From an uncultured virus (IMG/VR IMGVR_UViG_3300046537_000053) (lineage: Duplodnaviria > Heunggongvirae > Uroviricota > Caudoviricetes > Schitoviridae), in IMG/VR virus record IMGVR_UViG_3300046537_000053: a stretch of 64,000 bases of DNA; one strand, 5' to 3'. Within the stretch, counting starts at the first letter, position 1, and each line of letters starts with the position of its first letter. The notes below the pieces were generated by a model. It was not told the origin of the DNA. It saw only the letters and a list, made by a program, of their open reading frames with translations, and did no database searches. Both the position numbers and the translations under genes were made by a program. Positions 10,091 through 64,000 of this stretch are shown one piece after another.

Positions 10091-10205
10091 CACATGTCCA
10101 AATCGGAGGGGCAATTCCGATCGTTAGCGTCACAGGGACTAGAGCTAGTGCTTTAGTCACTGCGAACCTGACACAGGATTGCTCCCCCAGGGTGGGAGAT
10201 TTCAC

Positions 10206-10718
10206 ATGGTTATCAACGGCATAGACCTGCTCGTGCAGACGCCGATTGTCTCCATGCTGACCGAGAAGCACACCGCTAACGGAGTGAGTCACGGTCTGGC
10301 GGAGGTCGGCTACGACATTCGCATCAAACAGGAAATCCAGTTCCGGCCGTCGCGGATCGATGGATGTGTTTACATCCGATCATTTTGTCCGGTCACGACA
10401 GAGGAACGATTTGACGACGGCCGGTTTATCCTTGCTTCGGCAATGGAGGAATTCAAGATGCCCGATGGACTGATGGGCATCGTCCATGACAAGTCTTCGT
10501 GGGCTCGAAAGGGACTGTCGGTGTTCAACACCGTCATCGAGCCCGGCTGGCGCGGGTTCCTGACCCTCGAGCTGGTGTATCACGGCAGCGAGCTGCTAGT
10601 GATCCCGGCCGGGTCAGGGATCGCCCAGGTCGTATTTCATCAAGTTAGCGTACCCGCGGTGTATGACGGGAAGTATCAGGATCAAGCTGATCGTCCCGTC
10701 GAGACGATCCACGCTTAG
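10206..10718 (+). CDS. dcd: dCTP deaminase / trimeric dUTPase superfamily
   Basis: GYDIR, DKSSWARKGL, IEPGWRGFLTLEL, IAQVVF, YDGKYQDQ motifs. Confidence 0.9.
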   Translation: MVINGIDLLVQTPIVSMLTEKHTANGVSHGLAEVGYDIRIKQEIQFRPSRIDGCVYIRSFCPVTTEERFDDGRFILASAMEEFKMPDGLMGIVHDKSSWARKGLSVFNTVIEPGWRGFLTLELVYHGSELLVIPAGSGIAQVVFHQVSVPAVYDGKYQDQADRPVETIHA

Positions 10719-10824
10719 CAAGGTCCCGCAAGGGCAAAGCGTCGGAGCTACCCCTCCCCACCCACCCGGTCTCCGGCGTCACTGAGGGTCAGCAGTAACA
10801 CAAACCTGCTGACCCTCTTTTTTA
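10719..10824 (+). ncRNA. Candidate sRNA with C-rich loop ending in an intrinsic terminator
   Basis: CCC-GCAA-GGG hairpin; 9-bp stem 10739-10747/10771-10779 with loop ACCCCTCCCCACCCACCC; terminator GAGGGTCAGCAG/CTGCTGACCCTC plus T6 (10785-10824). Confidence 0.5.
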
Positions 10825-10871
10825 TTCAGAAACGCGGGCATGGCCACAGGCCTATGTTGGAATGTCCGCGG

Positions 10872-10907
10872 AAGAGCGGGATCAGCTCGGGGCTGGTCCC
10901 GCTCTTT
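10872..10907 (+). terminator. Terminator-like hairpin
   Basis: AAGAGCGGGATCAGC/GCTGGTCCCGCTCTT stem with short T run. Confidence 0.65.
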
Positions 10908-10998
10908 ACTATTCAACCCCACTAGACATAGAGTTTGTTCTATGTTTATTTAACTCCCGGGAGGTTGGCTAAGACCAAGTCAACCTGGGAGTGGGAAG

Positions 10999-11496
10999 AT
11001 GAGTCATTATGCGTGCCCGTCATGCGACGGGCCAACGTCAGTCGTAGAGACCCGCCGATCGAAAAAGGGCCTCCGACGTCGCCGCCGCTGCGGCAGCAAT
11101 CACCGTTTCACCACCGTCGAGCTACCCCATGACACCGCCAAGCGGGTCACCGGGCTGATCAACTGGCTAACCAAGCAGAACGGGTTTGATCCCGAGCTGG
11201 CAGAATATGCCCAGGAGGAAGCCAAGGCCATCATGCTCGGCCTTCCAGCTGAGGATGATGAGGATGAACTATCGACCGCTGTTCGTTGTCCCGAGGCACC
11301 TGACGGACAACATCATGATCAAGCCAGAACCGACACACAATCCCCTGAAGCCGGGCCGCAAGCCGGACCCGATGACCAGGGAACGCCAGCGCCAGGCCCA
11401 TATCAAGGGCCAGCTGCGGCGCCGGCACAGCCAACATATCGACCAGTCGATTGCCAAGCTCGAGAAGCGGTTGGCGATCCTGAAGGAAATTCGTGA
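10999..11496 (+). CDS. NrdR-like N-terminal zinc-ribbon protein without ATP cone
   Basis: CPSC...VVETR...RRRRRCGSNHRFTTVE matches the NrdR pattern CPxC...DSR...RRRREC...RFTTxE. Confidence 0.75.
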   Translation: MSHYACPSCDGPTSVVETRRSKKGLRRRRRCGSNHRFTTVELPHDTAKRVTGLINWLTKQNGFDPELAEYAQEEAKAIMLGLPAEDDEDELSTAVRCPEAPDGQHHDQARTDTQSPEAGPQAGPDDQGTPAPGPYQGPAAAPAQPTYRPVDCQAREAVGDPEGNS

Positions 11497-11506
11497 CGAA
11501 ATGTGA
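11264..11506 (+). CDS. Possible overlapping basic/coiled-coil protein
   Basis: GAGGA RBS with in-frame ATGs at 11255/11258/11264; stop overlaps the next ORF's upstream GTG. Confidence 0.45.
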   Translation: MNYRPLFVVPRHLTDNIMIKPEPTHNPLKPGRKPDPMTRERQRQAHIKGQLRRRHSQHIDQSIAKLEKRLAILKEIRDEM

Positions 11507-11532
11507 CTTGCTTTAAGCCTGGGGAGGGCCGA

Positions 11533-11871
11533 ATGAGTGGGACTGGGGCATCGCTGAATGACAAGATCGATCTGGCTCCATGGGGCTCTGCTCCTGGCCA
11601 TTATCTGTTTACCTGCATCGACTGCTCTCAGGACGACCCGAGAGACGCGCTGCATGTTGGTGCTAAACGAGCCTCGCGATGTATCCGCCATGCCCTAGAG
11701 GTTCGGCAACGCGAGATCCGCACCCTCCAGGACGATCATCGCGAGCCCGAAGAGCTCGTCGCCGAGGCGATCCTCCAGGTCTATGACGATACCAACTGCC
11801 GGGCACTGTTTATCGGCGCAATAATTATCGCCGCGGCAATCGTTGGGGCCCTCATCTTTCTGCCCCACTAG
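11533..11871 (+). CDS. Protein with CxxC...CxxH motif and C-terminal transmembrane helix
   Basis: GGGGAGGG RBS; CIDC, CIRH; ALFIGAIIIAAAIVGALIFL. Confidence 0.7.
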   Translation: MSGTGASLNDKIDLAPWGSAPGHYLFTCIDCSQDDPRDALHVGAKRASRCIRHALEVRQREIRTLQDDHREPEELVAEAILQVYDDTNCRALFIGAIIIAAAIVGALIFLPH

Positions 11872-29052: not shown

Positions 29053-32000
29053 TCAGCTGAACAGGTTGACCCACGGATTGAGCAGGTGGGCCCGGAAGCC
29101 CTGGTCCAGTCCGATCGACCAGCCCTCCTTGCCCTCGGCAATGACCGACACGAAGTTGTCGGTGACGGGCGTACCCACATCCAGCCCGAGGAACGCCGGG
29201 GTTGGAGCCAGGTGAGCCAGGAAGAGATGGAGCGGATTGTTCCGCAACACCGACAGGGCGATCTTGGCCGAGCGAAGCTTGAAGTTCCAGAACCACAAGA
29301 GCCCGTTATTCTCCAGGCCCGAGCGCCAGCGACCCGGCTGACGGTCGTAGTTGATGAATTCCTCGGTCACCTTGCCCATCGCCTCGTCATGGGTCTTGCC
29401 CTTGCGGCCGGTGAGCTCGTCATAGAGCACGGCTTTAGCTAGGAAGTCACCGTATTCGACCGCCCGCTGCAGCCCCTTGAACAGGGCCGTGTCGCGAGAG
29501 ACCATGCCGTACTTGGCCGCGGTCTTTAGACCATCAGGCAACTTGTCGGTCAGCTTCTCGATATAGGCGCCAAGGCGTCCTTCGGTCAGCTCGATCTCCT
29601 CGTTGGAGATGCCGGCGTCCGAGATGGAAGCAAACTCACCCGCATTGATCAGCGGCCAGATCGACAGGCGACGATTGGCATCGAGGATCGAGCGGATCTC
29701 GCGCTTGAGATCGTGCTGCTTCTGCAGATCCTGGGTCCCCTCGGCGACCCGCAGCTCACCCTCGAGCTCCATGCGGCGGGCCCGGTTCTTGATGAACTGG
29801 TCGACTTCCGCCGCCTTGGCCGGGAACCCCTTGAGAATATGCTTCAACGGCACGCCGCGGCTGGCCAGGTGGTAGACGTTCGACATCATGTTGGCGATCG
29901 GCACCACCACCGACTTGACGACGATCGTCACCTTGGCGTCCGAGACGAACGTCTGGAAGGTCTGCTCCGCCTTGACCAGGCGCTTGAAGGCATCCTGGCC
30001 GAACACCGCCATGGCGACGTCCTGGGCCGTCTTCTGGACTTCAGGTGACCAGCGGGAAATTCCCGTCCACAGGTCACTCACCGAAGGTGAACGGTAACCC
30101 AGTGCATCATTGACCTGATCCCGCCGTACCCAGAACTGGTTCTGGCCGAACTCGGCTTCGATCAATTCCCGGGCATCGGGCGTCAACAAGCCCACCGCAT
30201 CGGCGATGACCTTGTCCTGCTGGGCCTCGCGGCTGAACAGGTTGATATATTCCGACCGCTGACTCCGCTTGTCCCGGCGCCATTGATCACCCAGCCGTTC
30301 GATCAGCATGTCGTTGAAGTCGCCGGCCATCCGCTCTTCGACCTGGCGACCGTGCCAGATCCCGATGACCTCGTGCATCTGGGTATTGTAGTTGAGCTTC
30401 TCGACCACCAGCGGATCCATGCTCCGCTCATAGGCGATCACCTCACCGGCGCCATTGCGGACCGGCAGCAGCGGCTCACCGCCCTGCATCCGCAGCAGGC
30501 GGGTATCGACGACGCTGTCTTCGACCACACCCGCGGTCGCCACACCATTGCTGAGACCGGTTCTAGGATCAACGCCATAGGCCGTTGTCCGGACATTCTG
30601 CATGATCCCCTGCATGAACATCGCACGGCCGCTGACCGGGGCAAAGTAATAGCTCTTGGCTCGGGCCCGACGTTCGGCGTTGGAGCCCTGGTAGGCACCA
30701 ACCCGGATATAGCCGCGCTTTTTCAGATCGGTGAACTGACGATCGTCGGCCACGATCAGCGAGGTACCGGCCGCCTGCTCGGTCGGGACATGGCCCTTGA
30801 AGTGGTTCATCTCGGCCAATTCCGAGCTGGCCACCTTGGCCATTTCGTCCTTACGCTGACCAACCAGTCGGCTCATGACGTGGATCATCCCGTCACGCTC
30901 GGTGCTGATCAGATCCTTGAGGGTCTCGGCGACAGCCGGGTCCATCCGCTGGACAGCATAGAGCGACACCAGCTGATCGATCATGTCGATCGTCGCCTGG
31001 TTGGGCAGCTGGAACGCATTCCGCTGGGCCACGCTCAGCACCCCATGGAGCTCGGCTACCGCTTTGGCATTCCGCAGCAGATTGACGCCCGGATGGCCGG
31101 TCGTCATGTGATCAGCCAGCTGCTCGGCCTTACGCTGCCATTTGGCAAAGTTGGCCGGGTCGATCGTCTGCAGCTGGCGCTCGAGCTGGTTGATCTGACG
31201 CTGGGTGTTGGCCGGCCGGCTCAGCAGGTCTAGCAGCTGGGGCACAGTCATCGCACCCTGAACCAGGGAAGCAAGATCCGTCTTGGCCAGGCCCTTGAAC
31301 ATCGCCGTCCACTCATGCTCCTCGAGCGCCCGGCTGAACTGCTTGGCGATCTGCTTGGGCAGATACTCGCGGAACTGCTGGCGGGTCTGCTGGACGAACG
31401 TCCGCACCGCCTTGATCATGTCGTAGACCATCTTGTTGGACTCGGTCCGACCGGCGATTTCGGTCCACAGCTCCCGCAGCGGGGTCCAGATCTCCCGCTG
31501 GTTGAGAGCCGAGGTCACGCCATTGGCGACGATCTCCGACTTTTCCTCGTTGACGATCGCCATGGTGGTCTTGCCGAGCTTGGCCAGCAGCGACAGCAAC
31601 CGGTTGCGGCTGGCCTGTTCGACTCCGTCCAGCTTCTCGTACAGCGCCTTGCTGACGTTCTGAACGGAATTGACGAAGGTATCGTTGAAAGTGTCGGAGG
31701 TCTCTCCAACTTTGGTGACGAACTGATCAACATAGTTGGCGTTGTTGACGCTGTCCTCGACCAGCTTGTCCTGCAGCGAGTCGATCGCAGCCTGGACCGA
31801 GGCCTCGTGCTGGTGCTCGCCGGAGAAGATCTTGCCCAGCCGGTCCATGCTCTCGATCCCGAAGTTCTCGAGCGTCGCGTCCCAGGTGCCATCCAGGCTC
31901 TTGGCTTCCTTGCTGACCGGCAGCTTGGCGAGCACCGAGCGGAAATGGTCATCGACCATCGCCAGACCGATGAATGCCGGTAGCAGTGACGACCGGCCGG

Positions 32001-35000
32001 CATTGTCGAGCCGGGTGCCGAACAGGCCACGAAGCGCCTTCATCTGCTGGTGGGCAGCGTACCTCTCGGCATCGTTGGCGTTATCCGGATCCGCCATTAG
32101 ATGATCCTCGGTGAGGACCTTCATGACGTCGGTGTAGTGCTTCTGCATCCGGACCATCGAGTTCGGATTGAGCTTGGCATCGGTCATCATCGCCAGGACA
32201 ATGTTGCGGAAGGTCGACGACGCCAGCTGATCCATCGGGAATTCAGACCGCATGATCTCGGTCACGTCCAACGCATTGGCGAGATCCCGGGTGATGTTGG
32301 CTTTCTGGCGGGCAGCCTCGATCGGCGAAGCTGCAGCCGTGACCAGGGCCCCGATCTTCTGACCGTACTGGGCCCGCAATTCCCTGAGCCGCTCGGTCCG
32401 GCCGAGCGTCGAATGCTCGAGCGTGGCCTCCGAGCTCTGGATCTTCTGCTCGAGCGTCGGGGCCGAGTTGATCAGCACCTCGGTGTTGAACCGCAGGTTG
32501 GAAAACAGATCATTGCCCACGGTCGACGGGATCGCCCGGCCGAACACCAGCTTCTTGATCGCCTCAAGCACCGACTTGGCAATCTCCGCCAGGGTGCCGA
32601 CGATCGAGATCTTCTGGCCCTCGGCGATGAGGTCCCGGTTGGCCAGGTTCCATGCCATAAATTCATTAAGGGCAGCGGCCTTGTTGCCCGAGGCGAGATG
32701 CCCCTGGATCGCGCGAAGCGCGTCCTGGTAGGCAATCTGCAGCCGGAGAGGCGACATGGCCCGCTCGCCCGCTTCCAGAGCATGACCGATCCAGGTCGAC
32801 ATCAGCGACTCGATGCGAGCCACCGCCTCCTTCTGGACCTCGCTCAGCGAGCCGGGGTCGTTGTAATAGGCATAGACCTGATCGAACGAAGCCGCATGAA
32901 GCAGTTCGTGGACCAGCGTCTCCGACGACGGGTTGATCAGGTAGACGTGGCGTTCCGCGGTCAGCGTGAAACCATGGGAGACCTTGCCATTATTGCCCAG
33001 CGGCGTCAGTCCCGCGGCAACCCGCTTGGCATTGATCTGCTCAAGGGTGCCGACCGTTAGCTGATATCCACCATCGACCAGCTGCTTCAACGCGATGTTG
33101 AGCAGCTTCTTGTGCTCGAGCGGGATATTGAGCTGGCGACTAAGGCTACGAACTTCAGCCATGTTGGCAGTGCGGGTGCCAAAAGTCTCATCCAGTTCAC
33201 CCAGAGTGGACAATTCCTTGGCAATAGTTTCAGACGGTACCGCCTGCTTTTCGCTCCGCAGCTTGGCCAGCTCCTTGTCGAGCTCGGCATTGAGCGTGGC
33301 AGCGATGGCCGCGGGATCCCGATCGCTGATCTTGATCGAACCCTCGTTAACGTGCGGTGCCTCGGCCGACGCCATGTGGTCGACACTGAGCTGGGTATTG
33401 GCCAGCACGTTCTTCCGTGCCTGCATAACCTGTGCCAGATCTTCCAGCTGCTGGGCCCGGAACTTGATCGCCTCGATGATCCCGTCCGCGTCGCCGGCAC
33501 CGTCTTCGAACAGCACCCGGCCGAGATCATTGATGAGCTCTTCCGACATGTTCGAGAAATCGGCATTGGCTGCGAATTCGCTGAAGGCCTGGGCCACCGC
33601 GGTCAGCGGGTTGGCCGACCAGCCATTAAACACCGCCTTGTTCATCAGGGCCGAGCCCTTGGCGGCATCGGCGATCGACAGGTTGTAACCGTCGAATACC
33701 GGCAGGCCGTCAGGACTGTTGGGATCCGTGCCGTAATTCTGGATCATCTGACCGTCACCGGTGCCGATGACGATCGTTGGAATACCCTTGACCCCGGCAT
33801 TGACCGGGCCCTCAACCTGGGCTGACGAGCGGAAATTCTCCGCGAAGTCACGGCCGAATTCCGGCTGGCGGCCACCCTTGGCCTTGCCTCGGGCATCCCG
33901 CAGATCGACTTTGTCGGAGCCAGAGATGAAAAAGCTCTGGGTCCCGGTGTGGACGAACGGCGCCATGTGCTTCAGCCGGTCGAACGCTGTACGGATTTCT
34001 GCACGGGTCAGCAGGTCACCGCGGACATTCCGTTCATCCATCGACGCACTGAGGTCGTCCTGGAAAGCGTGCTGCAGGAAGATCGACTGGATCTGGATCG
34101 CATCCCGCAGGGCTTCGACCGAAGGACGGGTCTCGCCGATCACCTTGTTCATCGCCTGGACCATCGGCCCGACGAACAGATGCTCCACCGCGGACCGGAG
34201 GTTCTTCTCCTGGCTCCGGGTGAAGGTGTAATTCTTGAACGACTTGTCCCGCGGCTGCTCGGCCGGCTCGCGGATGGCGAAGAATTTCGACTTCTTGGTG
34301 CTCCACACAACCTTGTGGTTGGTGAGGCCCGAGATTTCCTGACCGATGCTGGCCACCGAACCGTGCTGCTCGGGGTCGCTCATGCGGGCGTAGATCTCTT
34401 CGAAGATCTCGTTGACGATCTTGCCGGCGATGCCCTTGGCACCGGAACCATAGACAGTGATGGTGACCGGGTTCTTGGTCACGCCACGATCGATGATCAG
34501 GTCGGTTCCCTCGAACCGCATGTCCTTCATCATCTCGGCCATGACGTTCCGCAGGGCCTGGTTGATCAGGCTCATCTCCGGATCGCCGGCGAGGTTGGCA
34601 ACCATGCCATCGAGCAGGGTGGTCAGCTCATTCTTGACGGCCGTGTAGAGATCCACCGGATCCGCGGCGAACTGGTCGGCGAAGGTTCCCCGATCCTCGC
34701 CGATCATCAGGCCGCCCTTGGCCACCGTCTGGATCCAGCCGGGCGTGAATTCCCCATGCTGACCGACACCCATGTGGACCATGGCGTTGATCGGGCCATC
34801 GGTGACACCGTCAGCCTCGAGGTACAGCGCCGTGTCGAACCCGCTGTTGTCGTCGTGCTGGGTGAACCGGACGTAATCCTGCAGGGCGTGCAAAGCACCC
34901 GGGGTAAGGTCCTTGCCCAGCTTATCCTTCAGCAGCTGCAGATCTTCAGCGGTGAATTTTTTCTTCTCGACAATGTCGAGCACCCCATCGAGCTGGGCCA

Positions 35001-38000
35001 TCTTGTCGGTGACCAGCTGCTCGATGTTGGCCAGACCGGTCTGGTGGATCTTGATCCCCAGATGCTGGCCGACCGCGGCGAAGAACATCTTGCGATGCTC
35101 GGGGTCAGCGAGATCGATCGTCGAATGCGTCGGCAGGATGATCTCACGCAGGATCTTGGAGGCCTGCGGATTGTTGCGGCCGAGCATGTGCAGACGACCG
35201 ACTGCAGACACACCGTAATCGTAGAAAACTTCAACTTGGTCAGGACTCAGTCCCTGCTCAGTTGCAGTCTGTCGGATGTGACCTAGCAATTCCTTGAAGG
35301 TCGCATAGGCCGACCGGGCCGTGATGATCTTGCCATCCAGCGACTTGGCATGGTTGATGTTGACCGCGCCCTCTTCGAAGGCCGGGGCCCCGAACAGCTC
35401 GGCGAACTGGTCTTCGGTCAGGCCCTCATAGAGCTCGACCATCCGCATGTTGGCCCGGAACGGCACCTTCTGGTAGCGTTCGATCAGGTCCCGCTGCTGC
35501 TTGGTGGTCTTCACCAGGCTCGAACCCATTTGATATTTCGCGACAGAAGTTGGCGCGGTTCCGACAAACAGCGTTTCTTCTGGCTCGATCGTGACCAGCT
35601 TGTCGATCAGGTCCGACTTGGTCTCCTTGAGCCGGGTCGCCAGCTTGCCGGCGTCGGTATCCTTGACCGGCAGCAACCGCTGCACAGTGATCTCGCCAAT
35701 CGTGATCGGCTTGTCCTGCTCGAGCAGGCCGACCGACACCAGTGCATTGAGCAGCTCACCGGCGAATGCCTCGGTGATGCCTTCGCTATTGCCGATAAAG
35801 GCGCCAGTCTTTTCCTGGACGCCCCAGAAACGGCGGATCAACGACGCCAGCTGGCGCTTCGAGTTGACGTTGGGGTAGCCATAGTTGAAGTAAGCCGGAG
35901 CCTCGGCCGGCACTTCGGCAATGTCGACGCCCAATCGCTTGGCGATGTCTTCGGCATCCTGGTTGCGAGCCGCACTGTTGGCGATCAGCAGCCAATGCAG
36001 GGCCGCCAGGATCCCGCCCTGCAGCAGCTCCATGTCGTAGCCGGTGACCTTGCCATCCTCGGTCGAGACCAGGTTCAAGGCCTTGCCGTTGACCCACTTG
36101 TTGGCAGCTTTGCCCGCGGCAATGGCATCACCATTCTTGACCAGGAACTGGCCCAGTTGGTTGGTCATGGCGGTGGCGATCGGCCGAGCCAGGCCGAGGT
36201 AGCTGGAATAATCCTTGAGGACCTGCTCGCCGATCGGCTTCTGGAAGAACCGGTTGTCCTCGCCGACGAAGGCCTTGAGGGCCGTGCTGGATTTGAGGGC
36301 CCCGAGCAGCGTCTGGAACATCTCACGTCCCAGTCCCAACAATCGACTGATTGGCTGGGTCGGGATTTTGAAGCTTTCCTTGAACGCATTGGTGCCACCG
36401 ATCTCGAGGAGATCGGCGAACGGCTCTACAGGACCAGCACTATCATCGACAGCGGGTTCAGTTGAGTTGTCCTCAACATTTTCCACAGCTCGAACTTCGG
36501 ATGAGTCCGGCTTTTCTGCTTTGTTTTCAACAACTCCCGACTTCTCTTCAACTTTAGAGGAGTTGGGTTCGTTGGTCTTTTCCACCGCGTCGACGGTGTC
36601 CTCTGCCACGGTGTCGCCACTCGCTCCGCTCGTGGCTTCGTGGCCGGACTCCGTCTCGCGGACGAGTCGGTTTCCTTGCCGGATAAGGGTGTAAGATTTT
36701 GCACCATCGCCCTCGTTTACATTGCTACCACTGTGACGATACACCTCGAACGAGGTGACGTTGGGATGCTTGGCCATCAGCAGCTGAGCCAGTTTCAGCA
36801 CAGCAGCCGGGCCAATCGAGACCTTGTTCGAACGCTCACCGATGGTGAAGCCTTCGATCTTGTCGCCGTTCAGGATGTATTGCCCGAACACCACCTTGCC
36901 TTCCTTGGTGCGGTAGGCGAATTCGTGGCGACCCTTGTCGAGCGTGTCGGTGGCATCCGGGTACAGCACCATCGTCTTCAGCTCGCCCTTGGCGGCCGAC
37001 TTCTCGAGCCTGTCCTTGACTTCTTTCAGACGCTCGCCGCGGCTTTGCGGCTTGGCGTCCGGTTCCGGCGCCGGCTCGCTGCTTTCCTGAGCGAGGGGCT
37101 GCTCTTTCTGCTGGCGGGCGGCTTCCTCGCGGGCGGCGTTACGCGCCTGCTTGTAATTGAACTTGACCTGCTCGGCCCGGTCCTGGAGGGACTCGTCGAG
37201 CTGGGTCAGAGTGACCGGCTTGATGCCCAACTCAGGGTGCAGTTCAGCCAAGTGGTTGGCGAAGTCGACCGTCGCACGGGCATCCTCGAATACCCGCTGG
37301 GCAAAGCGAACTGACTTCGGAGCCATGGGATTAACCCACATTCCCTGCTTCTGTTCGAAGAATTTCCGGGTCTGTTGGGCTAGAGCCTTGTACGGTGTGG
37401 TGTTGGTTTCGCTACCTTCACCACCCGCCAGGTTTTCATTGATCGCAGCGATCTTGTTGTTCTGACTCTGGGCAAACTTCATTAGGTCCGCCAGCTGCTT
37501 GGCTGCCTTGGGCAGGTCACCCTGACGGATCGAGGACGAGATCTTCTGCTGGTGCGAGCTCAGCGACTCGAATTCACCTTCGCCATTGTCGCCGTGACGG
37601 ATGTCATAGGCGATCGCATGGCTCTGGGTCAGCTTGAGCTCGTTCGACTTGGCCACGTCTGCAGCCTGGATCCGGTTGAGGCCGGCTATGGCCTCAAGGC
37701 TCTGGCGTTCTGCCGGCGTCAGCGGCAGGTCACCCTTACTGGCCATCTCGAGCACCGTGTCGACGACATCCGCCTTGACGCTGCCCGGGTTCTGGATCGC
37801 CGACTTGGCGGCAATGCTGGCCCAACGGGCATCATTCTTGACCCGGGCCGCAGTGATCGCGGATGCAATCTTGTTGCCGGTCTCGATCGCCTTGTGGACT
37901 TCGGGGCTTGCACTGAAATTCTGGACGATCTCGGCCAGCTTGTTGAGCTGCTCTACCGCGGGATCGTTCTGGTCCAGCGGTTCGAACGCATCACCCAGCT

Positions 38001-39726
38001 TCTCGACCATGTCCCCGGCATGATCCTTGGTGAACTGGGCCAGCCACAGGCTGGCTTCGGCCCGGTCTTCCGGGGCCAAATTCTTGTCCTGGACGGCGGC
38101 CGTCATCTTCTGCAGGGCGTCAAACCGGTCGGTGGAACCAGACAGGATTGAAGCAACTGCGGGCCCATCCTTGTGGGCTTCAGCTTCCTTGGCTCCGTCG
38201 AACGACACCGCACTGATCAGGTCGTCGATCGCCTTTTCGCCCGCGGTGAACTGCTCTTCCGAACCGGCCTTTTCCTGGAGACGCTCCCGCAGGCCATCGA
38301 GCACACCCGGCTCGGCCACTGCCTGAGCTGCAGCCTCGGCGGTGGTGCGGGTCTCGGCATTGTGAACCGACAGCGGCGACTGGGCATCAATCCCGGCCTC
38401 AACTGCAGCTGCACGGTTGGAGGCGAAGTCCTTGCCAGCGTCGACAATCTTGCCAACTCCAGCAGCAACAGCCTTGCCGGCCGTGATCGGAGCACCTGGG
38501 ATCTGCACCGCTCCCGCGGTACCCATACCATAGAGAGCACCCTCGGCCGCCTGGTCACCGACATCAGTCGTCAGCGAGCGATCCTGATCGGCATTGGCCT
38601 GGATCCCGACGTTGGTCGCGATCTGACCGCCACCCGACTGGAGGCCTTCCTCCACGGTTTCCCGGAGGACGTTGCCGGCCGCAGTCTTAAGACCGGGCAC
38701 ATGGAACGGATCGGCTTCAAACTTGGACACCAGCTTACCGGTGATGACACCGACCGGGGCCTGGATGGCAGCGGCCGTCAGACCGGCATGGTTGGCGATT
38801 TCAGCCTTGGCATCACTCTCACTCCAGCCCTGTTCGATCAGCGACTGATAATCTGGCGATCCCTTGAGCAACTGGTCGTGGGACATGCCCATGACTTCGT
38901 TGACGGTCTGGGTATAGGCGCCGCCACCCTCGAGGGCACCAATCGCCAGCGGCATTGCTCCACCCCGGGTGGCAGCATTGATTGCGAACGCAGCCTTCGA
39001 AGGACCGGCAGCTCCCACCGCGAGACGGGCTGCAGCCAGGCCACCGACTGCCTTGATACCCTTGCCGATGACACCGCCGAGGAGCATCGAACCGACGCCC
39101 TGAGCCGTACCCGACTCGAGGTTGACGGCGTCCATATTGTTGACACCGTCGATGAAGTCCCGGCCAACCTGGCGAAGACCGGCTACAAACGAGCTCGAGC
39201 CGTTGGCGATCTCTTCGTCGCGGAGCCGAGCATTCTCCTCACTGGAGACGCTGACCCGCTCACCATGGGCCCGTCGACGGGCGTTGAGCGCGTTGGACTG
39301 CAGACCTGAACCAAAGTCATTAACGTCCTGGGCCCAGCCGCTTACGGCCGTGCCAGCATCACGATCAACCAGACCAGCTCCAACAGCGCCAATGCCAAGA
39401 GCACCTTGAAAGACACCGTTGACGACGTCGACTGCACTGTCGCCGATTGCCCGTCCGTTGGATCGGGTCGCAGAGGTGTCTTCGACATATTGACCGTAAC
39501 CACCTACTTCTTGAGCCAAGGCATCACGGTCGCCAGCGTTCGGGTTGAGAATATCCTGAGCTGTCAGCTTGGAGGTCAACGCGATATCGGGATCGTCCCG
39601 GGCAGCGTCACGGTACCCACCGTTGAAATTTGCCTGCTTGGTTGCCGCCGCTTCAGCGACATCGATCTGCTTCGACTGTGCGGCTGTGCCAAGATATTCA
39701 CCAAACAGGCGAGACACGTCAGACAT
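29053..39726 (-). CDS. Virion-encapsidated RNA polymerase (N4 gp50-like vRNAP)
   Basis: About 3,560 aa; T7-like motifs SAVGR, EADGVTDG, RGVTKNPVTITVYGSG, VFDG; no Cys seen on reading; ATG 39726 follows GTGGGGA. Confidence 0.97.
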   Translation of the reverse strand: MSDVSRLFGEYLGTAAQSKQIDVAEAAATKQANFNGGYRDAARDDPDIALTSKLTAQDILNPNAGDRDALAQEVGGYGQYVEDTSATRSNGRAIGDSAVDVVNGVFQGALGIGAVGAGLVDRDAGTAVSGWAQDVNDFGSGLQSNALNARRRAHGERVSVSSEENARLRDEEIANGSSSFVAGLRQVGRDFIDGVNNMDAVNLESGTAQGVGSMLLGGVIGKGIKAVGGLAAARLAVGAAGPSKAAFAINAATRGGAMPLAIGALEGGGAYTQTVNEVMGMSHDQLLKGSPDYQSLIEQGWSESDAKAEIANHAGLTAAAIQAPVGVITGKLVSKFEADPFHVPGLKTAAGNVLRETVEEGLQSGGGQIATNVGIQANADQDRSLTTDVGDQAAEGALYGMGTAGAVQIPGAPITAGKAVAAGVGKIVDAGKDFASNRAAAVEAGIDAQSPLSVHNAETRTTAEAAAQAVAEPGVLDGLRERLQEKAGSEEQFTAGEKAIDDLISAVSFDGAKEAEAHKDGPAVASILSGSTDRFDALQKMTAAVQDKNLAPEDRAEASLWLAQFTKDHAGDMVEKLGDAFEPLDQNDPAVEQLNKLAEIVQNFSASPEVHKAIETGNKIASAITAARVKNDARWASIAAKSAIQNPGSVKADVVDTVLEMASKGDLPLTPAERQSLEAIAGLNRIQAADVAKSNELKLTQSHAIAYDIRHGDNGEGEFESLSSHQQKISSSIRQGDLPKAAKQLADLMKFAQSQNNKIAAINENLAGGEGSETNTTPYKALAQQTRKFFEQKQGMWVNPMAPKSVRFAQRVFEDARATVDFANHLAELHPELGIKPVTLTQLDESLQDRAEQVKFNYKQARNAAREEAARQQKEQPLAQESSEPAPEPDAKPQSRGERLKEVKDRLEKSAAKGELKTMVLYPDATDTLDKGRHEFAYRTKEGKVVFGQYILNGDKIEGFTIGERSNKVSIGPAAVLKLAQLLMAKHPNVTSFEVYRHSGSNVNEGDGAKSYTLIRQGNRLVRETESGHEATSGASGDTVAEDTVDAVEKTNEPNSSKVEEKSGVVENKAEKPDSSEVRAVENVEDNSTEPAVDDSAGPVEPFADLLEIGGTNAFKESFKIPTQPISRLLGLGREMFQTLLGALKSSTALKAFVGEDNRFFQKPIGEQVLKDYSSYLGLARPIATAMTNQLGQFLVKNGDAIAAGKAANKWVNGKALNLVSTEDGKVTGYDMELLQGGILAALHWLLIANSAARNQDAEDIAKRLGVDIAEVPAEAPAYFNYGYPNVNSKRQLASLIRRFWGVQEKTGAFIGNSEGITEAFAGELLNALVSVGLLEQDKPITIGEITVQRLLPVKDTDAGKLATRLKETKSDLIDKLVTIEPEETLFVGTAPTSVAKYQMGSSLVKTTKQQRDLIERYQKVPFRANMRMVELYEGLTEDQFAELFGAPAFEEGAVNINHAKSLDGKIITARSAYATFKELLGHIRQTATEQGLSPDQVEVFYDYGVSAVGRLHMLGRNNPQASKILREIILPTHSTIDLADPEHRKMFFAAVGQHLGIKIHQTGLANIEQLVTDKMAQLDGVLDIVEKKKFTAEDLQLLKDKLGKDLTPGALHALQDYVRFTQHDDNSGFDTALYLEADGVTDGPINAMVHMGVGQHGEFTPGWIQTVAKGGLMIGEDRGTFADQFAADPVDLYTAVKNELTTLLDGMVANLAGDPEMSLINQALRNVMAEMMKDMRFEGTDLIIDRGVTKNPVTITVYGSGAKGIAGKIVNEIFEEIYARMSDPEQHGSVASIGQEISGLTNHKVVWSTKKSKFFAIREPAEQPRDKSFKNYTFTRSQEKNLRSAVEHLFVGPMVQAMNKVIGETRPSVEALRDAIQIQSIFLQHAFQDDLSASMDERNVRGDLLTRAEIRTAFDRLKHMAPFVHTGTQSFFISGSDKVDLRDARGKAKGGRQPEFGRDFAENFRSSAQVEGPVNAGVKGIPTIVIGTGDGQMIQNYGTDPNSPDGLPVFDGYNLSIADAAKGSALMNKAVFNGWSANPLTAVAQAFSEFAANADFSNMSEELINDLGRVLFEDGAGDADGIIEAIKFRAQQLEDLAQVMQARKNVLANTQLSVDHMASAEAPHVNEGSIKISDRDPAAIAATLNAELDKELAKLRSEKQAVPSETIAKELSTLGELDETFGTRTANMAEVRSLSRQLNIPLEHKKLLNIALKQLVDGGYQLTVGTLEQINAKRVAAGLTPLGNNGKVSHGFTLTAERHVYLINPSSETLVHELLHAASFDQVYAYYNDPGSLSEVQKEAVARIESLMSTWIGHALEAGERAMSPLRLQIAYQDALRAIQGHLASGNKAAALNEFMAWNLANRDLIAEGQKISIVGTLAEIAKSVLEAIKKLVFGRAIPSTVGNDLFSNLRFNTEVLINSAPTLEQKIQSSEATLEHSTLGRTERLRELRAQYGQKIGALVTAAASPIEAARQKANITRDLANALDVTEIMRSEFPMDQLASSTFRNIVLAMMTDAKLNPNSMVRMQKHYTDVMKVLTEDHLMADPDNANDAERYAAHQQMKALRGLFGTRLDNAGRSSLLPAFIGLAMVDDHFRSVLAKLPVSKEAKSLDGTWDATLENFGIESMDRLGKIFSGEHQHEASVQAAIDSLQDKLVEDSVNNANYVDQFVTKVGETSDTFNDTFVNSVQNVSKALYEKLDGVEQASRNRLLSLLAKLGKTTMAIVNEEKSEIVANGVTSALNQREIWTPLRELWTEIAGRTESNKMVYDMIKAVRTFVQQTRQQFREYLPKQIAKQFSRALEEHEWTAMFKGLAKTDLASLVQGAMTVPQLLDLLSRPANTQRQINQLERQLQTIDPANFAKWQRKAEQLADHMTTGHPGVNLLRNAKAVAELHGVLSVAQRNAFQLPNQATIDMIDQLVSLYAVQRMDPAVAETLKDLISTERDGMIHVMSRLVGQRKDEMAKVASSELAEMNHFKGHVPTEQAAGTSLIVADDRQFTDLKKRGYIRVGAYQGSNAERRARAKSYYFAPVSGRAMFMQGIMQNVRTTAYGVDPRTGLSNGVATAGVVEDSVVDTRLLRMQGGEPLLPVRNGAGEVIAYERSMDPLVVEKLNYNTQMHEVIGIWHGRQVEERMAGDFNDMLIERLGDQWRRDKRSQRSEYINLFSREAQQDKVIADAVGLLTPDARELIEAEFGQNQFWVRRDQVNDALGYRSPSVSDLWTGISRWSPEVQKTAQDVAMAVFGQDAFKRLVKAEQTFQTFVSDAKVTIVVKSVVVPIANMMSNVYHLASRGVPLKHILKGFPAKAAEVDQFIKNRARRMELEGELRVAEGTQDLQKQHDLKREIRSILDANRRLSIWPLINAGEFASISDAGISNEEIELTEGRLGAYIEKLTDKLPDGLKTAAKYGMVSRDTALFKGLQRAVEYGDFLAKAVLYDELTGRKGKTHDEAMGKVTEEFINYDRQPGRWRSGLENNGLLWFWNFKLRSAKIALSVLRNNPLHLFLAHLAPTPAFLGLDVGTPVTDNFVSVIAEGKEGWSIGLDQGFRAHLLNPWVNLFS

Positions 39727-39768
39727 TAATGAAATCCCCACTACCCGCTGTTATCTCTAGCACAGTAG

Positions 39769-46652: not shown

Positions 46653-47840
46653 TTAGAGCGGCGCGACGGTCTTGATGAGACCGATGCGCTCCGGGCGCTT
46701 GACCAGGATACCGTAGTACCACTTGATCGAGCTGAAGCCCGTCTCGCCGTAAGGATCGTTGCGATCGGCGGTCGCGTTGCCCGGCATCTTGGTGATGGTC
46801 GAGAACTTGACCGTCTTGCCGTCCGTCTGGAAGCCGATGGTGGCGAAGCTGTCATCACCGACGACGAGCATCGGATAGACGTTGTACTTGCCGCCACTGA
46901 CCCGATAGCCGGGGTTGGTGACCACGTTGGCACCAGCACCGGTCCAGTTCAGCATTTCCGGAACCTGGACGATGCGGAACGCATCGATGGTGCCGATTTC
47001 GCCGTTGAGGACGGTGCCAGCGTCGCCGTAATGCTGCACGGCGATGAAGGCCTTGTTCGAGAACAGGTCCTGCATACCCTTCAGCAACGGCACCAGCTCC
47101 GAGCCGACGAACATCACACGAGCAGCCGGGATGGTGGCCGTGTCGATGAGACGCGAGCCAGTGACCACCTTGGTCTGCTGCGGAGTGCGGTTGTCGGTCA
47201 GGATCTGGTCGAGACGCATCAGGTCCGCGTAATCGACGATGGCAGCGCCAGCGCCTTCACCCGAAACCGTCGCGTTCGATACCGCGGTGCCCGAATAGAC
47301 AATGACGCCGGCGTTCGCGAGAAGATCCTTCTGGAGGACCGCCTCGGTCAGCTGGACCGCACCCGTGAGAAGCTCACGGCTGAGGTGGTCCATCAGCTTC
47401 TCGTCCGAGTCGAAATCGATCGACTCCTGCGAGAATTCGGTGAAGAAACCGAACTTGGTGATGGAACCCGAACGCTGCAGACGGGTAAAGCCGACGCGGT
47501 TAACGCGGCCACCGTTTTCGCCGAGCAGCGGGAGCTTCGAGGTGATGGCGCCCACGTCACGGCTGGAACCATAGAGGTTGCCGTCCGCGATGGTGGCACC
47601 AGCGGCATCGATGCCCTGGTCATTGACGTTGCGGTCGTCGAGCAGCGGCACATATTCGTAGACCTTGATGGTCTTGCCGAAGTGAGCCGGAATGTTCTCG
47701 ACCGAAGCGAGCGGAAGGAAATACTGGTCCTTCCGTGCGGTGATGATCGCCTTCTTCAACCAGAAGAAGGTGTTCATCTGACCGGAACCGGCGCCGTCGA
47801 TGACCTCCTTGTCACCCGCGCCAGCGGTATAGTTCAACAT
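46653..47840 (-). CDS. Major capsid protein (N4 gp56 family)
   Basis: [46 protein letters not shown]. Confidence 0.96.
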
Positions 47841-47883
47841 GACTTAAACTCCCCACCCATTTGACGGTCACTGCCTCCCCAGG

Positions 47884-49501: not shown

Positions 49502-51826
49502 TCATACAGGCTGGGTTACCATCGCCGGATCCAGCGGCTGGTCTGCCTCTGGTCCGATCGGGAGGCCTGCTCCCCCAATGTCGTCGACTGGCAAGGCGCT
49601 TGCTGCCGGTGCGGGAATTGCCTGCACGGGAGGCGCTACGTTGCTGTCATTGTCCTGCTTGTTGGCGATCCGCGAGTAGCCAATGGCTGCCTCGACATCG
49701 CCGTCCTTTTCCTCGGGCTTCCTGGTCTTGAGCAAGGCCTTGGTGACCTCGAGATCCATGTTGCCCTGAGCCTGGCCACGCTGCTTTTCCATCTCGCGGG
49801 CGTGGGTCGTGCCAGTCTCTTGCTCGACAAAGCCGAGGTTGACGGCATCAGTTTCGGCTTCGGTCTTGTCAGTCTTGGCGTCGTTGAGCTCGGCCTCCGA
49901 CATCAGCTTCTTGACCTTGAACCGCAGTTCCTCGATCTGCAGCTTCTGCATCTCCTGAGCCAGCGGATCCGGCTGCGGCTGGAACTTGGCGATCTTCTCG
50001 GCCAGCTCCGGCAGCTTCGACAGGCGGGCGATCTCGCTGAGGATCATCAGGGTGATCCCCATGTCGACCGTGTTACCCAGCGTCTGCAGCATGAATGCCA
50101 GGTCCTGGGCCTGCTTGGCATCGACTTCGGCGGTCGAGATATCGACCTCGAGATCGAAGTTGCCGGCCAGGTCTTCCCGGCGAACCGTCTGGAACTCGGT
50201 ATTGGTGATCCGGATGGTCTCTTCCTCGCTGAGGAAGGCGGCATTCATCGAGCAGATCTTCTGACCCACTTCCATGATGCCCTTGGCCAGCCGGCGAAGG
50301 ATCGCCATTTCGCGCTTGGAGGCGGCATCCAGCACGCCGCGGATACCCGCGGCCACATCACCATAGGCTTCGCCCGACATGCCACCAGCGAAGCTCTTGA
50401 CGCCGGTGAGGGCCTCGGCTTCCTGGTTCTGCAGGTTGAGCATCAGCATCGCCGATTGCGGGATGTCCGGATACTTGTGCTCGACGATGCCATTGGCCGG
50501 CGAGACGTTCGGGTTGAACTCGTAATCCTTGCCGTCCTCGTAGCGACGGCGGTTGAGCGGATCGAGCATTCCCTTGGCGAAGCCCTGCTGGGCATTGGCT
50601 GACCGGCCGAGGAGATCGATCAGGCCGCGGCTGACAGCGCCGAGGATCGCCTGGTTGTCTTCCAGCAGCTCGGCATCGGGCTCACCATAGAGCTCGCGCT
50701 TGACCGGCAGGTACGGAACCAGAACGAAGGGAAGCTTGCCGTCCGGGAACGGGTTGAGCTCCATGCGGACCAGCGTCTTGCCGATCCAGGTGGCGACGAA
50801 CGGGATCAGCTCGTCATTGCCGTGAATGTCGTAGAAGCCCCAATACTCATAGGCCACGATCTTTCGGCGGGCCTTGTCGTGGAGATTGATCGGATCGGGG
50901 ATCTGCGTCTGGTGGTCGGGCTGCTGCAGCACCGACGAACCTTCGAAGTTGACCTGATCCAAATTTGTGTAGCGTTTGCCTTCCTTCTTGAGGTCGGCCA
51001 GGCAGGTCTCGAATGAGCAGATGGCGAACATCGCCTTGTCGATGTCGCCGTTGCAGGTCGGGTCGATGAACACGTTGGCGATGTTCATGACTTCGGCGGT
51101 CGGCCGGTTCTCGATGATCTTCTCGACCTCGACCACCTGGACCGTGCCATTGTCTTCGGCGTAGGTCGCCTCGCCGGTTTCCTCGTAATAGTCGACGCAC
51201 GCCTTCAGTTCGGGCGGCGCCTGGTCGTTGAAGCTGTGCGGGTCAGATGCCTTGAGGGCAATCGCCTGCTGCAGCATCTGGGCCTGCTCTTCGTCCTCGA
51301 TCGCGAAGTGATCGTAGACCGGCACTTCCTGCTTGATCTTGACGGTGTGACGCTTCCAGCCGACGCGGACGATCGAGGTACCCTCGTCGACCGTTGAGCG
51401 GATGAAGTCGTCGATAAACTTGACCCGGTTCATCTGGGTCCGGAACTGGTAGTTGAGGACCAGCTCGTTCTGCCGGGCAGCCTTGCCGTCTTCGAAGGTG
51501 ACCGGCGAGATCTTGAACAGCTTGGCCGAAGCCAGGAACGGCTCGGTCAGGGCTGAGTAGCGCCACTCTGCCTGGCGCCGGATCAGCTTGGGCTGGACGC
51601 CTGAACGGCCCTTGACCTTGGTCGGCTTGGCCGTGCCCTTCACATGGAGCAGGTCATTCCAGCGATTGATCTTGGTGATCTGAACGCCCTGAACTTGCTT
51701 GGCATTCTCGAAGTCCGTGACCAGGTCGCACAGACGTGGCTCATTGGCCCAATCTGTTAGCTTGGGACCATATTCAGGATTGTTGTCATGATAATTGGCA
51801 GCCTGAGCTGCAGCTACATCCGCCAT
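49502..51826 (-). CDS. Portal protein (N4 gp59-like)
   Basis: QPKLIRRQAEWRYSALTEPFL, AYEYWG, LLGRSANAQ motifs. Confidence 0.95.
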   Translation of the reverse strand: MADVAAAQAANYHDNNPEYGPKLTDWANEPRLCDLVTDFENAKQVQGVQITKINRWNDLLHVKGTAKPTKVKGRSGVQPKLIRRQAEWRYSALTEPFLASAKLFKISPVTFEDGKAARQNELVLNYQFRTQMNRVKFIDDFIRSTVDEGTSIVRVGWKRHTVKIKQEVPVYDHFAIEDEEQAQMLQQAIALKASDPHSFNDQAPPELKACVDYYEETGEATYAEDNGTVQVVEVEKIIENRPTAEVMNIANVFIDPTCNGDIDKAMFAICSFETCLADLKKEGKRYTNLDQVNFEGSSVLQQPDHQTQIPDPINLHDKARRKIVAYEYWGFYDIHGNDELIPFVATWIGKTLVRMELNPFPDGKLPFVLVPYLPVKRELYGEPDAELLEDNQAILGAVSRGLIDLLGRSANAQQGFAKGMLDPLNRRRYEDGKDYEFNPNVSPANGIVEHKYPDIPQSAMLMLNLQNQEAEALTGVKSFAGGMSGEAYGDVAAGIRGVLDAASKREMAILRRLAKGIMEVGQKICSMNAAFLSEEETIRITNTEFQTVRREDLAGNFDLEVDISTAEVDAKQAQDLAFMLQTLGNTVDMGITLMILSEIARLSKLPELAEKIAKFQPQPDPLAQEMQKLQIEELRFKVKKLMSEAELNDAKTDKTEAETDAVNLGFVEQETGTTHAREMEKQRGQAQGNMDLEVTKALLKTRKPEEKDGDVEAAIGYSRIANKQDNDSNVAPPVQAIPAPAASALPVDDIGGAGLPIGPEADQPLDPAMVTQPV

Positions 51827-51900
51827 ATTTCCCCACCCAACCCACGCCTATATGTAATAGACTTTTGTTGGAGTCGAGCAGTTTCTGCCCGACCCCGTTA

Positions 51901-52916: not shown

Positions 52917-53083
52917 GACCGGGTCCAATCTCGATCTTGTTTGAAATAGCCGCCTAGCGAGCAGTCGACCGGGGCCCTCGATGGCACGATCTCACACCTA
53001 ACTTCAGCGGCCATAGCCTCATCAATCGAGGCAGCCGCTAGTCCGAGAACCAGACCAATGACGACACAGAGGCCAGCCTTCAT
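52901..53083 (-). CDS. 60-aa protein with signal-peptide-like N-terminus
   Basis: ATGA overlap with endolysin stop; MKAGLCVVIGLVLGLAAAS. Confidence 0.55.
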   Translation of the reverse strand: MKAGLCVVIGLVLGLAAASIDEAMAAEVRCEIVPSRAPVDCSLGGYFKQDRDWTRSCQRS

Positions 53084-53766: not shown

Positions 53767-53784
53767 TTCCCCACCCCTGGGTTG

Positions 53785-56386: not shown

Positions 56387-56445
56387 GTGTACTGTCCCTC
56401 CCCAGGGCTGATAGAGTTAACTTTTGTGGAACTGCTCCTAAATTT

Positions 56446-59879: not shown

Positions 59880-59915
59880 CTATTCCCCACCCAACCCGGT
59901 CAGAGTTGAACTAAC

Positions 59916-62241: not shown

Positions 62242-62378
62242 TTTCCCCACCATTATATATACTGTGTGAGTCCGGTTTCTCTGGGTTCCCGGACACTAGC
62301 GAGAGCGCCGGCCGAGAGGCCGCCTGCTCGGGTAGCCGGGGGTAGGCTGGTCACCAATGATCCCCCGGCTGCTTCGCT

Positions 62379-62687
62379 TTAGACCAGGATCAGCCAGTCC
62401 TCCATCAGCAGGTCACTTTGGCTGGCTACCCACGGCACCACATCCTGGTCGACGGTGAACATGGCGATGTAGGGCCGATAGGGCACCAGCCCGTCGATGT
62501 GGCCCTGGGCAATCAGCTTGCCAGTCTCGGTGGTCGGCGGATAACGGCCCTCGCCCACCAGGTAGAGGAACATATTCTTGCCGTTCCAACCGCGGCGGAG
62601 GATCCGCTTGCCGGCCTTCAGGGCCTCGAGGGCCTCACTGAAACAGAAGGTAATGACCCTGGGTTCTTCGAAATTGGTCGCTCGCAT
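62379..62687 (-). CDS. DUF2829 protein (Tad2-like nucleotide sponge)
   Basis: FSEALEALKAGKRILRRGWNGKNMFL...PWVASQSDLLMEDW signature. Confidence 0.85.
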   Translation of the reverse strand: MRATNFEEPRVITFCFSEALEALKAGKRILRRGWNGKNMFLYLVGEGRYPPTTETGKLIAQGHIDGLVPYRPYIAMFTVDQDVVPWVASQSDLLMEDWLILV

Positions 62688-62764
62688 TGGTTTCACTCCC
62701 CACCATATTAGATCTATATTTGTAGGGAGTCGGCGTCAGCCGACCCCCGAAATTTTTTCGACCC

Positions 62765-63334: not shown

Positions 63335-63556
63335 ATTCCCTTTATCTAGCCACCTGCAATCGGGTGGGGCCCTTAGTATTTAGGGTATTTATCGCCGAAA
63401 GCCAACTGCGTCGGGGACGGCAGGCCATTTCTTCTCAATTTACTAGAGAAGAGAAAGGACCCTCCTATTGTCTGCTGTGTCCTAAAGAACACAACCAGAC
63501 CAGGAGAAACTGGGGATAAATCCCACAGCATTTGACAGATATGTAACACTATGAGA

Positions 63557-63724: not shown

Positions 63725-63860
63725 CTTATGTCGGCTGAGCCACATAAGAAAAAAGTTCCACAGATGAAAAATATCTATTGACCTGTTCAGGGTTTACGAT
63801 AGGTTTGGAGCCAGAGGGAGAGAGCGGGGTCTTCGCGCTGAAGCATCGATCGAACTCTTA

Positions 63861-63950
63861 TTTGGGTGGGGAGGGAATAAGCTAGAACTATCGCTCAGGT
63901 TTGCCCCTTATCCTGGCCGGTCGCTTTAGCTTATTCTTCCCCACCTCAAA
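63861..63950. repeat. About 25-bp imperfect inverted repeat
   Basis: TTTGGGTGGGGAGGGAATAAGCTA versus TAGCTTATTCTTCCCCACCTCAAA. Confidence 0.75.
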
Positions 63951-63963
63951 CTTATCTGCATAT

Positions 63964-63988: not shown

Positions 63989-64000
63989 GTGCCTGCCGGC

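Follow-up and report, generated by a model that had tools for sequence, protein, structure and literature searches.

The 64,000-nucleotide (nt) stretch of DNA analysed here (the window; IMG/VR record IMGVR_UViG_3300046537_000053) belongs to an uncultured N4-like phage (Schitoviridae) from soil/rhizosphere. The 106 nt 3' of the stop codon of its dCTP deaminase gene (dcd; 10206..10718, + strand; PHROG 1663, 5.4e-52; Pfam DCD, 66.3 bits) form three predicted hairpins on the + strand, one of which presents a G-free, C-rich loop complementary to the G-rich Shine-Dalgarno (SD) sequences of late genes. An earlier note on this DNA had proposed that the element is a phage small RNA (sRNA), antisense to a ribosome-binding motif shared by late genes and gating their translation; the observation itself (structure, coordinates and matches) was confirmed, and the interpretation was partly supported. 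The reading preferred in this work is a tentative one, possible rather than probable: dcd's 3' untranslated region (3'UTR) would act in trans as an anti-SD RNA aimed mainly at late virion mRNAs. The window has a GC content of 59.4%; the first ~29 kb have their genes on the + strand, and the genes from that for virion RNA polymerase (3562 aa) onward lie on the - strand.

The element starts 5 nt past the dcd stop (TAG, 10716-10718; the start of the gene was taken as the ATG after GGGTGGGAG). Folding of 10716-10830 (+ strand) with RNAfold gave -43.2 kcal/mol (z -3.82), and none of 200 shuffled sequences was equally stable. The first structure is a mini-hairpin with a GCAA tetraloop (10723..10735), composed in the minimum free energy (MFE) fold of G10723-C10735 and CCC10725-27/GGG10732-34 with one bulged U. 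It is followed by the display hairpin (10739..10779), which has a 9-bp stem (10739-47/10771-79), a CU bulge and 3 further base pairs (10750-52/10768-70). With the 3'UTR folded alone, the lower-stem pair G10747-C10771 had a probability (P) of 0.99, the bases of the loop (10753..10767) were unpaired with P 0.88-1.00, and the three inner pairs of the MFE fold (ACC10750-52/GGU10768-70) had P 0.69-0.78. The loop, CCTCCCCACCCACCC, is 15 nt long, or 18 nt with the inner pairs open; the architecture described in the earlier note (GCAA hairpin, 9-bp stem with two G.U pairs, terminator) was thus recovered, except that the loop of the MFE fold has 15 nt and not 18. The third structure is an intrinsic terminator (10784..10823) made up of a GC-rich, perfect 12-bp stem (10784-95/10806-17, arms 100% complementary), a 10-nt loop and a run of T6 at 10818-10823 (U in the RNA). 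It was missed by the terminator scan for its 10-nt loop alone, the limit of that scan being a loop of at most 8 nt. The two G.U pairs of the display stem (G10739.U10779 and U10742.G10776) become C/A mismatches on the - strand, where the display stem was weakened and the centroid fold kept the terminator hairpin only; the display structure is therefore a feature of the + strand RNA, as had been proposed.

The eight complementarities listed in the earlier note, all upstream of - strand genes, were found again at the same positions. The most extensive was the leader and SD of the gene for a gp67-like virion structural protein (59880..59901; gene 59166-59879; PHROG 2125), which matches 10+7 nt with one bulge, extends over the loop into the 3' stem arm and gave a duplex energy of -27.0 kcal/mol and the best cofold gain (-20.2). 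The portal leader and SD (51828..51845; gene 49502-51826; PHROG 1.9e-252) include a 10-nt perfect complement (51830-51839) and 3 more nt past one bulge (duplex -28.9), and the SD of the major capsid gene (47849..47859; gene 46653-47840; PHROG major head protein) is an 11-nt perfect complement (duplex -24.4). The three strongest predicted partners, portal, gp67-like and capsid, are core virion genes. Complements of 9 nt were found at the SDs of a lysozyme-like gene (53768..53776; gene 53080-53766), called endolysin previously, of an exonuclease/phosphoesterase gene (56396..56404; gene 55253-56386) and of a Tad2-like (former DUF2829) gene (62696..62704; gene 62379-62687); the SD of the gp69-like gene (62244..62251; gene 61498-62241) matches 8 nt and that of the virion RNA polymerase gene (39735..39741; gene 29053-39726) 7 nt. 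An exhaustive list of leader matches of at least 7 nt added 42716-23, 54260-68 and 55257-63 among the late leaders (- strand) and 4037-43, 10190-96, 11520-28 and 27436-44 on the + strand.

The preference for late leaders was quantitative. Mean duplex energy was -15.0 kcal/mol for 25 late (- strand) leaders vs. -8.3 kcal/mol for 32 early/middle (+ strand) leaders (Mann-Whitney p 7.6e-5), and none of 300 permuted loops of matched composition reached the late mean. A cofold gain of -5 or better was seen in 20 of the 25 late and 11 of the 32 early/middle leaders; MFE cofolding, a rough measure that includes local structure, opens the display stem and is noisy. On the late leaders, a 12-nt canonical 16S tail motif reached at best -11.2 vs. 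-28.9 for the loop, and the loop could therefore compete with ribosomes for G-rich SDs.

The rank of the loop within the window was assessed by taking leaders as -25 to +3 and scoring 18-mers, drawn from the strands assumed to be sense, by how many leaders contained a perfect complement of at least 7 nt. The loop 18-mers ranked first of 63,362, complementing 15-16 of the 57 leaders; the next unrelated locus reached 10, and 99.8% of the 18-mers reached at most 5. Among the permuted loops, 3 of 300 attained the observed mean of the top five leaders, and 3 of 300 had as many leaders with energies of at most -17 kcal/mol, so that the order of letters in the loop matters beyond C-richness. No other tract of the window is as extreme as this one (18 nt, 14 C and no G), and a fold-based hairpin scan of both window strands revealed no other G-free, C-rich loop of at least 15 nt. 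Loop 7-mers on the sense strands of late mRNAs outside the leaders (29053-63400, - strand) occurred at 1 site, and the G-rich sequences complementary to them at 15 (binomial p 5e-4), suggesting from sequence counts that anti-SD-like sequences are not neutral in this phage; this scarcity may reflect avoidance of such sequences or an amino-acid bias, and is consistent with the selection against anti-SD-like sequences in mRNAs described in the available part of one study (PMC12697547). The predicted exposure of the loop, its rank and the permutations together correspond to one of the features of the anti-SD class, a single-stranded seed complementary to target SDs beyond chance.

Two SD styles coexist in this genome. 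The G-rich style, GG(G)TGGGGA(G) or TGGGGAGGG, also represented as GGTGGGGA, was present in 12 of the 25 late and 5 of the 32 early/middle leaders (Fisher p 0.010), whereas the ordinary AAGGA(G)/GGAG was the only style in 7 of the 25 late and 16 of the 32 curated early/middle leaders. The claim that many replication genes use AAGGAG holds in these figures, and that of a ribosome-binding motif shared by late genes holds for about half of them, the motif being not late-specific. The G tract lies 0-11 nt from the start codon, as expected for a broad SD, and the loop's complement takes in the two G-rich variants together, with Watson-Crick pairs throughout. To judge from the canonical tail, G-rich SDs may match the 3' tail of the 16S rRNA by extended wobble pairing. 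In two late leaders (genes starting at 62241 and 62687), -10-like hexamers (TATAAT and TAATAT) abut the G-rich SD, so that transcription of these late genes may begin at the G tract or immediately ahead of it, giving mRNAs whose leaders are very short. In Rhizobium phage RHph_X3_15, the closest cultured relative by capsid (75.2%; 45% GC), the SDs are ordinary ones and dcd and the gene after it overlap, so that the G-rich dialect and the dcd spacer appear to be lineage-specific.

On the preferred reading, each transcript of dcd, or else a processing fragment of it, would end in an exposed anti-SD loop, and the RNA would accumulate in the middle phase, a timing that takes dcd for a middle gene by analogy with N4. 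The loop would then base-pair in trans with late virion mRNAs at their G-rich SDs, best with those of the gp67-like, portal and capsid genes, and would occlude 30S binding until late transcripts outnumber the RNA, sparing genes of the AAGGAG type. A stable RNA, its pairing in vivo, repression as the direction of its effect and, by analogy, the timing are what we infer on top of the predicted fold and the matches. In a stronger form, which we consider rather unlikely, the RNA would be a global translational timer: by mimicking the anti-SD tail of the ribosome with a perfect Watson-Crick fit to the G-rich dialect only, it would keep back virion mRNAs, those of portal and capsid among them, up to its titration by late transcription, leave AAGGAG-type replication genes free, and have a decoy or partner in a site at 63863-63875.

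Several results weigh against a trans role aimed at late mRNAs. The curation of start codons relied on motifs resembling ribosome-binding sites (RBS); the ranking nonetheless holds with uncurated starts (the first ATG of each greedy open reading frame, ORF, of at least 60 aa), where the loop complemented 14-15 of 56 leaders and the next locus 9. Permuted loops still averaged -13.1 kcal/mol vs. the observed -15.0, and plain C18 attained -21.8 at best, so that most of the predicted affinity comes from plain C-richness. Ranking by energy only, which separates poorly in this GC-rich DNA, put the loop narrowly in the lead among 21,122 sampled 18-mers (-20.3 vs. -19.0). A first-order Markov model predicts 0.235 such tracts per 64 kb, both strands included; the tract alone is not rare, and it is its content and placement that are unusual. 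Sense-strand sites at -20 kcal/mol or below numbered 27, 18 of them away from any start and 9 beside one, the latter being an about nine-fold excess over the ~3.7% of the sequence occupied by leaders. The G-rich motif was lacking in 13 of the 25 late leaders, including those of terminase and several tail genes, and was found in dcd and both genes downstream of it; these account for 3 of the 5 G-rich SDs of the + strand (post hoc hypergeometric probability 0.002). No sigma-70-like promoter was detected on the + strand between 10091 and 10720, a scan that does not extend to promoters of phage polymerases, which cannot be scanned for.

Comparison with relatives points in the same direction. Relatives of dcd numbered 358 in IMG/VR (80 kept; top identity 65%), 107 in JGI metagenomes (80 kept; top full-length identity 64%) and 6 loci in GTDB genomes (top identity 60%). 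Of 160 loci, 154 allowed the dcd stop to be located, and in the 250 nt examined downstream of it none of the 154 had a comparable loop, only four small C-rich loops of 9-10 nt being present. Likewise, 759 kb of N4-like loci contained 21 C-rich tracts, none of them in a stable loop accompanied by a terminator. The exact 16-nt loop pattern occurred at 11 loci in IMG/VR, all unrelated C-rich stretches and none with hairpin plus terminator. In blastn of 10100-11600 against phages (86 records), all of the matches listed (40) fell inside the dcd coding sequence, and no record covered 80% of the query. No match was obtained in the whole window at the gathering score of Rfam 15, RsaE, 6C and alphaproteobacterial sRNAs included, and with E up to 10 the region 10500-11100 gave 5 matches of 12.2-17.1 bits vs. 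cut-offs of 51-95.

These results on composition and conservation favour a passive role in which the hairpin stabilises the end of the dcd mRNA or aids termination and the C-rich loop matches G-rich SDs incidentally, a possibility of almost the same weight as the trans reading. Composition supplies most of the affinity, a tract of this kind is not especially improbable under the Markov model, the absence of the loop from the dcd loci and of stem plus terminator from the C-rich tracts leaves no conservation that would argue for selection, and structure is abundant in the spacer behind dcd, which forms a chain of seven hairpins up to the next gene (10825-11010, z -6.9). An unrelated N4-like contig (L058, 40% GC) offers an example: directly after its dcd lies a terminator hairpin (2814-2880) whose stem has 13 bp and whose C-rich loop has 19 nt, despite genes without G-rich SDs. 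In that contig the hairpin is followed by sequence whose predicted folding resembles that of tRNA genes. An unpaired 15-nt loop, however, contributes nothing to hairpin stability, and a passive role does not account for a letter order that beat all 300 permutations, for the first rank of 63,362 by exact complement or for the near absence of anti-SD-like 7-mers elsewhere in late mRNAs.

The clustering of G-rich SDs around the element is instead what would be expected if the loop worked in cis, pairing with the dcd SD in its own transcript and, upon read-through, with the SDs of the next two genes, and so lowering translation and stability of a small nucleotide-metabolism module. The dcd SD (10190..10198, + strand; GGGTGGGAG) lies ~560 nt upstream of the loop, and in a fold of 10150-10826 (677 nt) the loop bases 10757-10763 paired with 10190-10196 with P 0.35-0.59; the SD of the second gene downstream (11520..11528, + strand; gene 11533-11871) is a 9-nt perfect complement (-19.9). 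Masking of G-rich SDs is moreover common here: in local folds of the leaders of genes 39726, 62687, 27453 and 10999 (virion RNA polymerase, Tad2-like, RusA-like and NrdR-like) the G-rich SD pairs with an upstream C-rich arm, and these models suggest that translation of such genes needs unmasking. In the NrdR-like gene (10999-11496, + strand) the G-rich SD (10985..10996) is masked by the upstream ACTCCCGGG arm. Precedents are given, in the text available, by the 5'-3' UTR interaction of icaR mRNA in Staphylococcus aureus (PMC3868564) and by Bacillus subtilis mRNAs in which distant anti-SD-like sequences pair with their own RBS (PMC12697547). The match to dcd itself is, however, a 7-nt complement with 2 more nt past a bulge (duplex -17.1 kcal/mol), and the late leaders match over 10-17 nt, a better fit than a role confined to dcd would need. 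In folds of the read-through transcripts (10600-11100 and 10600-11600) the loop was unpaired with the downstream SDs and the display stem was lost (P 0.01-0.03); long folds are unstable, and the disappearance of the display stem shows how unreliable they are. In addition, a strong terminator stands between the loop and the downstream genes. A cis effect is regarded as unlikely, though still a serious rival, and a role in trans is favoured over one limited to dcd because the longest partners (capsid, 11 nt; portal, 10+3; gp67-like, 10+7) use the full loop and the dcd SD needs 7+2.

Whatever its role, the element is best described as the dcd 3'UTR and at most, given processing, as a 3'UTR-derived sRNA: it lies between the stop codon and the intrinsic terminator of the same gene, shares this operon terminator with dcd and has no detectable promoter of its own. 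The proposal of a phage sRNA is thus supported as to a predicted structure ahead of a terminator and not as to a separate sRNA gene. Coding alternatives were rejected, as a + strand ORF (10663-10785, 40 aa) and a - strand ORF (10645-10782, 45 aa) both overlap dcd and have no SD. The frame past the dcd TAG is open for 68 codons, which is unremarkable at 59% GC, and nothing else points to read-through of the TAG.

A function as hairpin promoter was also considered. In N4, hairpin promoters have stems of 5-7 bp. Those of the N4-like phage LUZ7 are described, in the text available, as GC-rich stems of at least 6 bp with loops of 3-4 nt located ~15 bp upstream of the start site (PMC9163698). The GCAA mini-hairpin, with only 3-4 pairs, and the C-loop hairpin, with its 15-nt loop, do not fit this format, and the hairpins with loops of 3-4 nt showed no recognisable promoter pattern.

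At the DNA level, the - strand of the loop region (10751-10767) carries the only G-quadruplex-type motif of the window on either strand (regular expression of four runs of at least 3 G, 1-7 nt apart; here with single-base gaps), and the inverted repeat that frames it could make it an element of replication or transcription, or an inverted relic of a late leader. The 17 nt with one indel that are common to the gp67-like leader, 4 nt of which lie beyond the loop, would agree with an inverted duplication. Against this stand a chance expectation of 3.9 +/- 2.1 such motifs per window, the G.U pairs favouring a + strand RNA, and the absence of any - strand gene or start at SD distance, the lone - strand ORF (45 aa, antisense to dcd) having its GTG start upstream of the motif; we regard this explanation as very unlikely. 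Less likely still is a binding site in which a phage or host RNA-binding protein recognises the loop, for instance in the control of dcd mRNA decay. With its large single-stranded loop on top of a stable stem, the hairpin has a format typical of protein recognition, and the two genes downstream encode orphan proteins, one of them with an NrdR-type zinc ribbon; no result indicates such a protein, though, and the match to the SD motif would then be a coincidence.

The first of these orphans, encoded by 10999-11496 (165 aa), contains a zinc ribbon of the NrdR type (PF22811, 33.9 bits, cut-off 27.2) without a match to the ATP-cone, and no relatives of it were found in IMG/VR; as its gene adjoins dcd, the protein may serve the phage as a regulator of genes for nucleotide metabolism. 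Four further hairpins occupy the spacer between the element and this gene (10825-10998). Among them are a stem of 17 bp closed by a 3-nt loop (10871-10907), which resembles the GC-rich hairpin promoters of LUZ7, an inverted repeat (10923-10948) and a hairpin (10953-10992) that masks the SD of the NrdR-like gene.

Outside the leaders, the longest perfect complement of the loop in the window (13 nt) lies at 63863..63875 (+ strand), which was also the best duplex site (-31.6). It is the G-rich arm of a long imperfect hairpin (63860-63950; C-rich partner arm 63928-63948) flanked by + strand terminator-like hairpins (63693-63720 and 63966-63981), with no ORF after it, and might represent an RNA gene in its own right or else act on the loop as its partner or decoy. 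The region 63350-64000 gave sub-threshold noise only against Rfam (E up to 1), and 63400-64000 gave no match in blastn against phages. Terminator-like hairpins of the + strand at 79-112 and 63960-63990 have a common core, CGCTTTTCAGCGG, and the first contains GTGGGGA in its 3' arm.

PHROG and Pfam scans identified dcd, rIIA, major head protein, portal and gp67-like virion protein, together with terminase, lysozyme, exonuclease and the Tad2-like (former DUF2829) protein; the gene for the last (62379-62687; Thoeris anti-defence 2-like, PF11195, 86 bits) is placed among the late genes. No tRNA or tmRNA genes were found in the window. Identity of the capsid to those of cultured phages of Sinorhizobium, Achromobacter, Pseudomonas and Escherichia was at most 75.2%. 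The eight sequencing runs listed as containing window DNA were all DNA runs from rhizosphere or soil. Contigs of runs X5-X8 were compared over the element, where short contigs of X7 (10683-10833) and X6 (10767-10917) were identical to the window. In X5 and X7 (rhizosphere) there is also a dcd variant of ~90% identity (10476-10630, 15 differences in 155 nt), whose contigs diverge past 10630, before the element.

Among known systems, the C-rich-loop sRNAs RNAIII and RsaE/RoxS of Firmicutes and the actinobacterial 6C RNA seed with exposed C-rich loops on G-rich SDs. The dcd element resembles them in a C-rich loop predicted to be exposed opposite G-rich SDs, but has no sequence or covariance-model similarity to them, and they possess several C-rich loops and promoters of their own. 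sRNAs derived from 3'UTRs and sharing the terminator of the upstream mRNA are a class known from enterobacteria. The position right after a stop codon and upstream of the operon terminator, with no promoter of its own found, is the same here, whereas the seed lies in a hairpin loop and not at a 5' end produced by processing. For N4-like phages, the timing of gene expression is accounted for by the succession of three RNA polymerases. No additional layer of translational control in these phages is described in the available portions of the LUZ7 paper (PMC9163698), of a phage sRNA review and of the results of a full-text literature search, and the latter two, to the same extent, contain no anti-SD regulator of late genes in a lytic phage. 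LUZ7 itself has putative late sRNAs between orf69 and orf70, one of them probably processed, as far as the available text of that paper describes them (PMC9163698); they differ from the dcd element in locus, in having no proposed anti-SD role in that text and in sequence, as the listed blastn matches in phages were confined to the dcd coding sequence.

The closest parallel to the proposed function, and one that fits in hairpin and loop size, is provided by the cuckoo RNAs of Alphaproteobacteria (RSs0680/CcsR and SmelC397/NfeR1), chromosomal bacterial genes which, in the text available, are described as 2-4 adjacent hairpins of 24-50 nt with loops of 9-27 nt, each loop with the C-rich, anti-SD-like motif CCUCCUCCC, and are thought to mask RBSs (PMC4615179). 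The same source supplies the precedent for C-rich-loop sRNAs masking SDs, 3'-located cuckoo hairpins included (PMC4615179). The hairpin described here (41 nt, loop of 15 nt) is within these published limits and contains CCUCC. It is, in contrast, the only C-loop hairpin of three, has the motif CCUCCCCACCCACCC and not CCUCCUCCC, and is found in a phage directly behind a coding gene; membership in the cuckoo family (CcsR / ar14 / NfeR1) was therefore rejected, the loop being CCTCCCCACCCACCC and the defining 2-4 hairpins with CCUCCUCCC being absent.

With icaR (PMC3868564) and the B. subtilis mRNAs, in which anti-SD-like sequences pair with an RBS lying several hundred nt away, favouring decay and preventing initiation (PMC12697547), the element would share, as far as these sources are available, a C-rich anti-SD in the 3' part of an mRNA that may pair with its own SD (that of dcd, in one fold). 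Unlike in those cases, the best complements here are SDs belonging to other genes, encoded on the opposite strand, a hairpin loop dedicated to the purpose displays the sequence, and the pairing is predicted. If real, the element would be a variant among C-rich-loop anti-SD RNAs, one by which a phage would address a whole class of genes by means of an SD dialect of its own together with a single small RNA, a compact design principle that would be useful for the synthetic control of phage gene sets.

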